Below, in pieces: positions 35,954-38,069 of a DNA stretch of 42,525 nucleotides (its first letter is position 1; each line of letters starts with the position of its first letter). This DNA comes from Candidatus Methanoperedenaceae archaeon. GTDB taxonomy: Archaea > Halobacteriota > Methanosarcinia > Methanosarcinales > Methanoperedenaceae. The notes under the pieces are model-generated. The model was not told the origin of the DNA. It ran no database searches and saw only the letters and a list, made by a program, of their open reading frames with translations. A program made the translations under genes and the position numbers. The DNA lies in NCBI GenBank assembly GCA_963753595.1, contig CAVWCX010000025.1, forward strand, positions 1 to 42,525. Direction: 5' to 3'.

Positions 35954-37051
35954 TCAAATTAAACCCGCTATTACATTTTTCCTGTACTCTGAAAACCCGT
36001 CATCCAATATCGCTTCCCTTGCCCCTTTCACTATTGACTGTATAAAATGAAGATTATGTATGGAAGCAAGCCGAAGAGCCAGCAGTTCGGATTCCTTGAA
36101 AAGATGATGCAGGTATGCTTTTGTATAATTCCTGCAGGTGTAGCATCCGCAATTTTCATCCACCGGCGAAAAATCCGTTGAAAATTTTTTCTTAGCAATA
36201 TCAATGCTCCCTTTTGAGGTCATAAGTGTCTGATGCCTTGCATTTCGCGTGGGAAAGGCGCTGTCAAAAATATCGATTCCAGATTCGATCGCATTTAATA
36301 TCTCTATCGGTGAACCCACACCCATAAGGTAGCGCGCCTTATCTTCAGGAACAAGCGGCACGCTAAGCTTTAAAACGTCATTCATGATTTCCTTTGGCTC
36401 ACCAATTGATAAGCCACCTATCCCATAGCCATCAAAATCAAGCTCGATCAGTTCTTCAGCACATCTTCTCCTCAATTCTGCAAATGTCCCTCCCTGAAGT
36501 ATTGCAAAGAAGAGCTGGCCATGGTTTTGGTCCACATTCTTAGCCATCCCCGCCCACTTTATTGTCCTTTCCATTGAAGCTTTCACAACTTTGAACTCAC
36601 TCCCATAAGCAGGGCAATCATCAAGTATCATAGCGACATCGCTTCCAAGCAGCTTCTGATTCGTAAGACAGATTTCAGGAGTATAAGAATATTTTTTCCC
36701 ATCCCGTAAATTCTTATAAATAATTCCCTCATCGTTGATCTTGAATGGAAAATCTTTTCGTATCATCTGGAAACCGCCGCTGTCTGTGAATATACCCCCC
36801 TTCCAATTCATGAATTTATGGAGACCGCCAGCTTTCTGGATAACTTCCATTCCGGGAGCGAGCAAAAGGTGAAAAGCATTGCTTATCAGCACCTCTGTTC
36901 CCATTTCATAAAGCTCATCGGTTGTGATCGTCTTTACCGTCGCTTTTGTGGCAACGGGCATGAATGCAGGAGTTTCAATGATCCCATGGTTTGTCCTGAG
37001 TTTTCCTGCTCTTGCTCCTGTATTTTTATCTGTGTGGATCAGCTGGTACAT
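35954..37051 (-). CDS. tgt: Bacterial-type tRNA-guanine(34) transglycosylase
   Basis: [48 protein letters not shown], and the Zn site CGCYTC...H. 365 aa from ATG 37051, with no archaeal PUA extension. Confidence 0.93.
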
Positions 37052-37052
37052 A

Positions 37053-38069
37053 TTATTTATCCCTCCCCTTGAAAACAAGCATTGCATCCCCGAAACTGTA
37101 AAACCTGTATGAATGTGAAATGGCTTCATTATAAGCCTCCATCAACCGTTCCCTGCCTGCAAAAGCACTCACAAGCATCAAGAGAGTGGATTTAGGAAGG
37201 TGGAAGTTTGTGATCATAGCATCAATTTTTGAGTTGAATTGATATGCCGGATAAATAAAAAGCTCACTGAATCCTTCTTTTTCTACTATTTTCCCATCAA
37301 TGCATGAACTCTCAAGTGCCTTTACCGTTGTTGTTCCTGCTGCTATGAGTTTTCCGGGCGTTCCATTGATAATGTCTGCATTTTCCTTCCGGACAGAAAT
37401 ATATTCCGGTTCCATAATGTGATATTCAATATCCTGGGCTTTAACTGGTGTAAAAGTCCCGAGGCTTACATGAAGAGTGACATAAGCGATGTTGACGCCT
37501 TTTTCTTTTATTCTCTCCAATAACTCGTTCGTGAAATGAAGGCCGGCTGTTGGCGCTGCAATTGAGCCTTTTTCTTTTGAATAGACCGTCTGGTAACGGT
37601 TCTTATTATCGAGTTTTTGTTTGATATACGGAGGCAGCGGCGCTTCTCCTATTTTTTCAAGAATGTCAGGAAGATTTCCATTGCAATTGAAATTAACAAG
37701 ATACCTGTTGGTATTGGGCCTTTCCAGGATCTGGAGCACTGTTGCTTCAAGCTCGCCGAAATTCAGTTTAGTACCTTCGTGGATATTCTTCCCCCGGATC
37801 ATGCATTCATAACCAGCGTCGTTCCTTGAGACAACAAGCGCTTCCACATGACCGCCGGTACTTTTTTTGCCCATGAGTTTTGCAGGTATTACTCTTGAAT
37901 CATTAAGAACAAGAGTATCCCCGGCCTCAAAGTAATCAAGGGCATCTGAGAAAAAACGGTGCTCGATCGTTTCCCTCACTACCATTAATTTAGATGCATC
38001 TCTTGGTTCTATTGGAGACTGGGCGATAAGTTCTTTGGGAAGATGATAGTCAAATTCACAGAGTTTCAT
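37053..38069 (-). CDS. queA: S-adenosylmethionine:tRNA ribosyltransferase-isomerase
   Basis: [78 protein letters not shown]. Confidence 0.97.

Follow-up and report, generated by a model that had tools for sequence, protein, structure and literature searches.

The window analysed here, a stretch of 42,525 nucleotides (nt) from Candidatus Methanoperedenaceae archaeon, carries on its minus strand an intact bacterial-type gene pair, queA and tgt, whose products belong to the queuosine tRNA modification pathway. The window is contig C25 (GenBank CAVWCX010000025.1) of the host genome, a Candidatus Methanoperedens draft (GCA_963753595.1, here G000) of 2.89 Mb in 37 contigs that is 92% complete with 2.95% estimated contamination. 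Textbooks assign queuosine to the tRNA of bacteria and eukaryotes and archaeosine to that of archaea, a division that would become less sharp if one lineage maintained both pathways by selection. The two genes and their junction are arranged as follows, where preQ1 is 7-aminomethyl-7-deazaguanine and aa stands for amino acids.

37053..38069, minus strand: queA, tRNA preQ1(34) S-adenosylmethionine ribosyltransferase-isomerase; 338 aa, intact; NF001140 and TIGR00113
35954..37051, minus strand: tgt, bacterial-type tRNA guanosine(34) transglycosylase (TGT); 365 aa, intact; TIGR00430
37049..37066, minus strand: queA-tgt junction; GGAGGG at 37066-37061, queA TAA at 37055-37053, tgt ATG at 37051-37049

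The original prediction had described a full-length queA separated by 1 nt from tgt; these coordinates were confirmed at the junction, and both proteins pass the cut-offs of their equivalog models. The longest tgt open reading frame (ORF) spans 35954..37129 on the minus strand, and the internal ATG at 37051 yields the 365-aa protein. A single spacer base, 37052, parts the queA stop codon from this ATG, and GGAGGG lies 9 nt ahead of it, a layout that suggests translational coupling of tgt to queA. QueA scores 415.1 bits against NF001140 (cut-off 324), 378.6 bits against TIGR00113 (cut-off 267.45) and 400.4 bits against Pfam Queuosine_synth, and for both proteins Pfam agrees with the NCBIfam calls. 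Residues 1-332 of QueA align with the solved Thermotoga maritima QueA 1vky (E value 1.7e-95), a full-length alignment extends also to the solved chain 1yy3, and the T. maritima and Bacillus subtilis QueA proteins are end-to-end matches. Tgt reaches 451.8 bits against TIGR00430, the model of the G34 enzyme, clearing its cut-off of 306.75 by about 145 bits, and fails the model of the archaeosine enzyme TgtA with only 156.7 bits (cut-off 350). Its best solved relatives are the bacterial TGTs 2ash, 10fb and 1ozm, and it aligns end to end with the solved enzymes of T. maritima, Escherichia coli and Zymomonas mobilis.

The active site of the window Tgt was mapped by alignment to the Z. mobilis enzyme, and conservation was assessed in 34 archaeal and 31 bacterial rows. 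In Z. mobilis Tgt we take D102 to be catalytic, D156 to be substrate-binding, and C318, C320, C323 and H349 to form the zinc site (CxCxxC...H). Window residues D90, D144 and D263, equivalent to D102, D156 and D280, are present in 34/34 archaeal sequences, as are C301, C303, C306 and H332 at the four zinc positions and C146 at the position of C158. Passages of one study (PMC3660597) give D280 as a catalytic Asp of Z. mobilis Tgt and describe Cys158 and Val233 as setting preQ1 use, their places being taken by Val and Gly in queuine-using eukaryotic enzymes. The residue equivalent to Val233 (Zm233) is Ile in 34/34 archaeal TGTs and never Gly; Val occupies it in 28 of the 31 bacterial rows, and the T. 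maritima TGT likewise has Ile. Because Cys is kept at Zm158 and Zm233 is Ile and not Gly, the archaeal Tgt pocket is predicted to be of the small bacterial type rather than the queuine type.

A search of the host genome for the remaining genes of 7-deazaguanine metabolism, which the original prediction had proposed, recovered arcTGT, arcS, queC, queD and a QueE-like gene. TgtA is encoded by a separate gene on contig C3 (480 aa, 637.8 bits), and the archaeosine synthase alpha subunit ArcS lies at G000:C4:78678-80516 (711.7 bits). QueC (184.7 bits, cut-off 150.3) and QueD/PTPS (75.1 bits, cut-off 22.4) pass their models; a 245-aa QueE-like radical S-adenosylmethionine (SAM) protein has QueE models as all of its best matches, each below cut-off. 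With QueD, the QueE-like protein and QueC, the host is predicted to encode synthesis of preQ0 (7-cyano-7-deazaguanine). Of the two epoxyqueuosine reductases sought, queH was found, in frameshifted form, and queG was not found over cut-off. Potential substrates are encoded as well: aragorn called genes for tRNA-Asp (GUC), tRNA-Asn (GUU) and tRNA-His (GUG) with U33-G34-U35 loops.

The distribution of these genes was surveyed at the order level in genomes at least 80% complete, with families designated by code. The counts below include an HGD-D-like protein, considered further on, whose presence was scored at an E value of 1e-20 or less.

f1 (the host's family): queA 43/45; queH 45/45; HGD-D-like protein 42/45
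f2: queA 13/15; queH 13/15; HGD-D-like protein 14/15
f5: queA 1/1; queH 1/1; HGD-D-like protein 1/1
f6: queA 1/2; queH 1/2; HGD-D-like protein 1/2
f3: queA 0/15; queH 0/15; HGD-D-like protein 0/15
f4: queA 0/150; queH 2/150 (fragments); HGD-D-like protein 2/150

An even sample of 401 genomes across the phylum contains queA in only 9, from f1, f2 and f10 (4/4 in f10), so that queA is found in five archaeal families (f1, f2, f5, f6 and f10). A control genome, that of Methanosarcina acetivorans, has no queA. The closest QueA loci are those of Candidatus Methanoperedens and other Methanoperedenaceae (75-94% identity), followed by bacteria and one Woesearchaeote at no more than 54%; the nearest bacterial proteins share at most 53% identity with QueA and 49% with Tgt. 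The gene order is kept among relatives, with tgt directly after queA in 39/43 archaeal loci (in two of the four exceptions the sequence ends there), and the same order occurs in Bacillota loci. QueH co-occurs with queA in a matching family pattern, and 41 of 42 other genomes of the genus encode it at full length in a single frame. Dozens of independently assembled genomes have the queA-tgt pair in archaeal surroundings, some on contigs of 0.4-1.9 Mb (G056:C2 and G029:C1).

Phylogenetic analysis places these genes in an archaeal lineage of their own. In a TGT tree of 65 rows, from which L001-L004, L134 and L037 were left out as duplicates, the 34 archaeal rows separate from the 31 bacterial rows with a support of 100 in the Shimodaira-Hasegawa-like approximate likelihood ratio test (SH-aLRT), and the order within the archaeal clade (f10, then f6, f2 and f1) follows the family codes. 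In a QueA tree of 100 rows, from which 13 Methanoperedens rows were omitted, all 25 archaeal rows, the Woesearchaeote included, fall on one side. The bacterial rows of both trees are those nearest to the query rather than a balanced sample. Pairwise ratios of nonsynonymous to synonymous substitution rates (dN/dS) are 0.05-0.12 for queA against six Methanoperedens orthologues and 0.04-0.08 for tgt within Methanoperedens, values that argue for purifying selection and retained function of both genes. Because the archaeal TGT clade is supported at SH-aLRT 100 and ordered by family, because queA is present in 43/45 genomes of the host's family and because dN/dS is low (0.04-0.12 over both genes), a single old acquisition followed by inheritance and losses appears to fit best, in agreement with the old transfer from bacteria that had been proposed originally. 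One queA in the genus is decayed, the only such copy seen: at G018:C199:1201-2056 the match is broken by one TGA and one TAA.

The analysis establishes what the two genes encode, that catalytic residues are conserved, that the pair is under purifying selection and that five archaeal families have retained it vertically, along with queH. We consider it likely that these genes constitute a functional, anciently acquired bacterial-type pathway that modifies the wobble base of GUN-anticodon tRNAs and operates beside the archaeosine pathway. By family membership, Tgt would place preQ1 in tRNA-Asp, -Asn, -His and -Tyr in exchange for G34, QueA would use S-adenosylmethionine to convert preQ1-tRNA to epoxyqueuosine-tRNA, and QueH, encoded elsewhere, would reduce epoxyqueuosine to queuosine. 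If true, the lineage offers a natural system for the question of how one preQ0 pool feeds two tRNA positions.

Several observations weigh against such a functional pathway. The queH gene of this assembly, at G000:C30:50590-51094, has one base more than in two relatives and is thereby split into two frames; should this extra base be genuine, the pathway of the strain would end at epoxyqueuosine. The alternative reductase QueG was not found over cut-off in the host genome, where the best score is 36.9 bits against a cut-off of 200; the candidates, ferredoxin-like matches far under the cut-off, were rejected. The 35 tRNAs called by aragorn, run without an intron search, contain no tRNA-Tyr gene. 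The Ile that stands in place of Z. mobilis Val233 is common to all 34 archaeal TGTs, and support for the archaeal QueA clade is weak (45, rising to 87 for 23 of its 25 rows). The text of a survey of archaeal genomes (PMC8204110), in the passages concerned, describes queuosine as known from Bacteria and Eukarya only. As to expression, RNA-labelled bioreactor contigs of a relative about 90% identical, from three runs of two studies (the RNA nature of one run being a guess), extend over tgt and queA and span their junction. The lack of cover over 38425-39000 in the RNA runs and over 35400-35883 in X1 carries no information, and the contigs may stem from DNA in the libraries; since they belong to a relative and DNA carry-over is uncontrolled, they give a weak hint of expression.

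The most consistent gap concerns the supply of preQ1. QueF, the enzyme that reduces preQ0 to preQ1, has 0 matches in the host genome at its 92% completeness; it scores over cut-off in just 1/49 genomes of the genus, on a virus- or plasmid-like contig, and in 0/5 genomes of f2, f5, f6 and f10, one of which is a single closed contig. A weak "QueF" match in G004 proved to be FolE, beside QueE and QueD, and a similar weak match in G045 (a 198-aa frame, 21.7 bits, model positions 1-59) resembles it. The one true QueF, on G010:C66, was rejected as a chromosomal gene because of its mobile-type neighbours and the lack of a nucleotide match to G000. This contig (G010:C66:1-19000, L250), binned with Methanoperedens, encodes queF, an HGPRT-like gene, queC, folE and an SbcC-like protein, together with a family-A DNA polymerase bearing a uracil-DNA glycosylase domain, a DnaB-like helicase and a phage/plasmid-like protein; from its gene content it looks like a virus, plasmid or other mobile element with 7-deazaguanine genes. 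The host genome likewise gave no match to the transporter families YhhQ/Vut_1/COG1738 (PF02592) and QueT/QrtT (PF06177). As encoded, the pathway would thus make preQ0 and process preQ1-tRNA with no known route to preQ1. The suggestion that the lineage splits its own 7-deazaguanine pool between two tRNA modifications was accordingly not sustained: it needs QueF, which was not found in the host, and there is no known preQ1 transporter. Because QueF and the known transporters were not found, preQ1 would have to enter the cell by an unrecognised route or come from a reductase not yet recognised.

For such a reductase, the leading candidate is a two-gene unit at G000:C30:46856-48519.

G000:C30:46856-47839: HGD-D-like protein, 328 aa; Pfam HGD-D, 88.1 bits
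G000:C30:47839-48519: BcrAD/BadFG activase ATPase (acyl-CoA dehydratase activase); 177.3 bits, cut-off 125.4

In the host, this pair sits 2.7 kb from queH and downstream of Elp3, to which it is translationally coupled. The genes for Elp3 (719.7 bits), which modifies U34 of tRNA, for the HGD-D-like protein and for the activase form an operon-like array with overlaps of 4 nt each (G000:C30:45252-48519; L156:3253-6526), and in f6-like loci the pair follows GatE, so that tRNA-related neighbours recur. The HGD-D-like proteins of the pair measure about 315-335 aa across lineages and contain three invariant Cys (C58, C86 and C282) in 49 sequences. A structure model of high confidence (predicted local distance difference test score 93.2) matches HadBC (2-hydroxyisocaproyl-CoA dehydratase), BzdNO/MbdON (class I benzoyl-CoA reductase, BCR) and the double-cubane cluster protein DCCP at template-modelling (TM) scores of 0.72-0.78, and the activase matches the DCCP reductase DCCP-R (7yyl_E) with an E value of 4e-32. 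The HGD-D-like protein fails the DCCP equivalog NF040772 with 38.1 bits (cut-off 350). Since the modelled fold is common to DCCP, HadBC and BCR, the protein is assigned to their superfamily, yet is apparently not a DCCP itself. A tree of the HGD-D-like proteins, from which 13 near-duplicate rows were omitted, resolves the family clades and not the backbone.

The phyletic pattern of the pair follows that of queA. In the 401-genome phylum sample, the 9 genomes with an HGD-D-like protein are exactly the 9 with queA. The pair is divergent from queA at a distance of at most 90 nt in 3/4 f10 genomes; 5 f2 genomes, which belong to a single genus, have it no more than 2.6 kb from queA, and in 6 Methanoperedens genomes, the host included, at most 6 kb parts it from queH. 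We also compared 80 metagenome loci of the pair: among the more distant loci with upstream sequence, 11/40 have a divergent queA within 1 kb, and one high-G+C archaeal contig (L221) carries queH, an RPA-like single-stranded DNA-binding protein, tgt and queA followed by the pair, its QueA being only 41% identical to that of the window. As a negative control, 76 loci surrounding the nearest queA genes of bacteria and the Woesearchaeote were examined, and none contains the pair.

Other observations speak against a link between the pair and queuosine. Among the Methanoperedens-like metagenome loci with upstream sequence, 0/23 have a divergent queA within 1 kb of the pair, and adjacency is missing in many lineages. 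Two of the 150 f4 genomes carry the pair without queA. Related genomes are not independent, so that the pattern amounts to about five family-level presences, and other lineage-shared genes could show a like pattern. On balance, gene context and co-occurrence incline us towards a functional link of the pair to the queuosine pathway. Because its phyletic pattern resembles that of queA, because it can adjoin queA or queH and because it was not found at the nearest bacterial and Woesearchaeote queA loci, we tentatively propose that the pair is the missing preQ0 reductase, a minimal two-component "archerase" that would use ATP-energised electrons at an Fe-S cluster to convert preQ0 to preQ1 by reducing its nitrile to an aminomethyl group, acting either on the free base or at the tRNA level. 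By replacing the NADPH-dependent QueF, the pair could then round off archaeal de novo synthesis of queuosine by five genes inherited together, an extension that we regard as equally speculative.

Further features of the pair loci were noted. Neighbours other than queuosine genes include GatE, an amidohydrolase, FttA and TetR/ABC genes. In about 18-20 of 48 metagenome loci (L193-L219 and L147/L151), the activase is followed by convergent genes for a PNPOx-like FMN-binding protein and an unassigned protein of about 119 aa. In a large f4 genome without queA (G182:C1:3196435-3204226, L243), the pair ends an operon with 1296-aa and 353-aa proteins of no family and a HerA-like ATPase, an arrangement that suggests a transferred island. 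A 728-aa ORF in L231 gave no evidence of a fusion, its likeness to the HGD-D-like protein being confined to the first 310 residues.

The surroundings of queA-tgt in the window are archaeal, as originally described: a B-family polymerase, a PurP-type ligase and a TATA-binding protein (TBP) were all found.

38070..38125, minus strand: 56-nt A+T-rich spacer upstream of queA, putative promoter region
38126..38983, minus strand: 285-aa ORF upstream of queA; no Pfam or NCBIfam match
35407..35952, plus strand: zinc-ribbon and RDD-family membrane protein (Pfam), convergent, abutting the tgt stop
34109-35203: ACR3, archaeal neighbour
31493-34072: B-family DNA polymerase, archaeal neighbour
40456-41526: PurP-type ligase, archaeal neighbour; 636.9 bits, cut-off 603
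41962-42525: TBP, archaeal neighbour

It is plausible that queA is driven by its own promoter, because the upstream gene varies among relatives. The 285-aa ORF is common only to L038 and the overlapping contig C4, and probably lies outside the pathway. The RDD protein (Pfam RDD, 85.5 bits; Zn_Ribbon_1, 35.3 bits; cluster c4) is kept only in the closest relatives (the window and C4, L038 and L136). Besides the HGD-D-like/activase pair, no neighbour of queA-tgt was found to be conserved across families: a SAM hydroxide adenosyltransferase, the RDD protein, an FAD-dependent protein and the 285-aa ORF are each confined to subclades. The adenosyltransferase (DUF62) stands directly upstream of queA in L132, L134, L152 and L153, which are other Methanoperedenaceae, and not in the window; QueA too is a SAM-consuming enzyme. 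The arsenite efflux gene ACR3 lies 1-4 kb from queuosine genes both in the window and on the distant contig L221 (38-994), which may be chance. No riboswitch was found at Rfam gathering scores in the window and five related loci, where the sole match is one tRNA.

No compositional break is seen at queA-tgt, in accord with the original prediction: G+C is 0.43 and 0.42 over 36001-38000, within a range of 0.33-0.51 for the window and 0.38-0.43 for contigs. The multi-copy insertion sequence-like repeats nearest to tgt, about 5.9 kb off, are at 26392-27697 (about 1.3 kb) and 28512-30061 (about 1.55 kb), each with at least 10 further copies on other contigs at 99.3-100% identity. A stretch of about 100 nt within 16829-16951 has 88-92% matches on five contigs (C24, C1, C23, C32 and C6). 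Both ends of the window recur elsewhere in the assembly. C25:32304-42525 equals the end of C4 (91928-81707) in reverse, at 99.43% over 10,222 bases and to both contig ends, and C25:1-2476 matches C30:95509-97984, at the end of C30, with 100% identity; C30, C25 and C4 could be joined through these overlaps, which the assembly left unmerged. The end-to-end overlap with C4 rules out a duplication of queA-tgt, the second "copy" on C4 being the same locus. Once C4 is joined, ArcS lies about 5.6 kb from queA, which brings genes of both 7-deazaguanine tRNA pathways close together.

The strongest rival explanation is that the pathway works by salvage only, with preQ1 taken from bacterial neighbours through another transporter family and the HGD-D-like/activase pair unrelated; we hold this to be a substantial possibility, though short of an even chance. 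Methanoperedens-type archaea live in consortia or enrichments with bacteria, and a Woesearchaeote genome with queA and queH has neither QueF nor the HGD-D-like pair, so that QueA can exist without both. Many bacteria that have no QueF live by salvage, according to passages of two studies (PMC11130926, PMC5372724). Such dependence is harder to reconcile with a host that makes preQ0 itself and in which neither known transporter family was found, and with the same QueF gap in all five queA-bearing families tested, along with a co-inherited reductase-type pair. The availability of preQ0 and the failure to find QueF are also compatible with Tgt placing the host's own preQ0 at position 34 and QueA and QueH lying idle or acting on another substrate. 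Bacterial Tgt does accept preQ0, and queF mutants carry it in their tRNA; the bulkier Ile at Zm233 of all archaeal TGTs also fits such an end point. Idle genes would decay, however, and QueA retains dN/dS values of 0.05-0.12, while both QueA and QueH are retained with tgt in the same families, so that we judge this outcome improbable.

Two further alternatives question the target or the reality of the locus itself. A Tgt-like enzyme might modify DNA or another RNA position in the manner of DpdA; 7-deazaguanine modification of DNA is described for phages and bacteria in passages of two studies (PMC6884629, PMC5699537), and the virus-like contig with queF, queC and folE was binned with one Methanoperedens genome. 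Yet the window Tgt beats the cut-off of the G34 equivalog by 145 bits and keeps all residues of the tRNA enzyme, its gene forms an operon with that of QueA, a tRNA-acting enzyme, and no dpd-like genes were seen beside tgt at the window locus or the compared loci, which makes this alternative very unlikely. A draft of 37 contigs with 2.95% estimated contamination and unmerged overlaps, for which no public run contained at least half of the sampled words (best 0.41), might raise the suspicion that the pair is contaminating bacterial DNA, was joined chimerically or arrived by recent transfer and is decaying. Against this stand the same pair in archaeal context in dozens of independent assemblies, its normal composition, its presence on both overlapping contigs C25 and C4, the archaeal clade in the TGT and QueA trees and purifying selection; an artefact or passenger is the least probable of the explanations, to the point of being nearly dismissed. 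A functional wobble-base pathway of ancient bacterial origin thus remains our preferred reading.

The presence of queA, queH and tgt in Methanosarcinales has already been published and is not new as a genomic observation. Passages of Castelle et al. 2021 (PMC8204110) report QueA, QueH and TGT in 34 archaeal genomes, and the legend of Figure 4 places them in DPANN and "some Euryarchaeota (Methanosarcinales)". The statement in the original prediction that such genes had been noted in some DPANN genomes was right; its further remark that no characterisation in Methanosarcinales was known holds insofar as no characterisation was found in the literature, while their presence there was already in print. 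No paper was found that pairs queuosine with Methanoperedens, and none besides PMC8204110 that pairs it with Methanosarcinales in this sense. A literature search for preQ0 or queuosine with the dehydratase/BCR/double-cubane superfamily found no link beyond two general reviews. What may be new with respect to print, as far as searched, are the chromosomal QueF gap, the missing transporters and the co-inherited reductase-type pair. The carriers are methane-oxidising archaea that are available as enrichments only. Their consistent lack of QueF makes the source of preQ1 a testable question, for which the Fe-S reductase pair provides a concrete candidate. Were the pair confirmed as a preQ0 reductase, a branch of the superfamily that lacks a physiological substrate would gain one, and nitrile reduction would have a second biological route, driven by ATP.

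The genes described here can be set against several known systems. The present case is an instance of that of Castelle et al. 2021 (PMC8204110), with the same three genes in the same archaeal order; the passages concerned contain no Methanoperedens, QueF or preQ1 source, or retention phylogeny, and Supplementary Table 5 may name the genomes. With the bacterial queuosine pathway (Bacillota; T. maritima Tgt 2ash, QueA 1vky and QueH) the archaeal genes share families at the equivalog level, the queA-tgt order, the catalytic and zinc residues of Tgt and a QueH-type epoxyqueuosine reductase. Unlike that pathway, they reside in a host that also has an archaeosine pathway and in which QueF, QueG, YhhQ and QueT were not found. 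The archaeosine pathway (arcTGT/TgtA, ArcS and preQ0 at G15) has the TGT fold and the preQ0 precursor in common with it, and both are encoded here; in contrast to TgtA, which is another gene, the window Tgt scores over the cut-off of the G34 model and below that of the TgtA model. QueF, an NADPH-dependent preQ0 nitrile reductase of the T-fold, performs the step that is missing here and was not found chromosomally in the archaeal genomes searched. Archerase-type enzymes use ATP-energised electrons for difficult reductions. The HGD-D-like protein is alike in fold and in activase partner to these systems (2-hydroxyacyl-CoA dehydratases, class I benzoyl-CoA reductases and DCCP/DCCP-R), for one of which, DCCP, passages of PMC7317905 describe ATP-dependent reduction of acetylene and no known physiological substrate. 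It differs from the archerases in being shorter (about 315-335 versus 370-440 aa) and of one subunit type, and from DCCP in possessing three invariant Cys where the double cubane has six.

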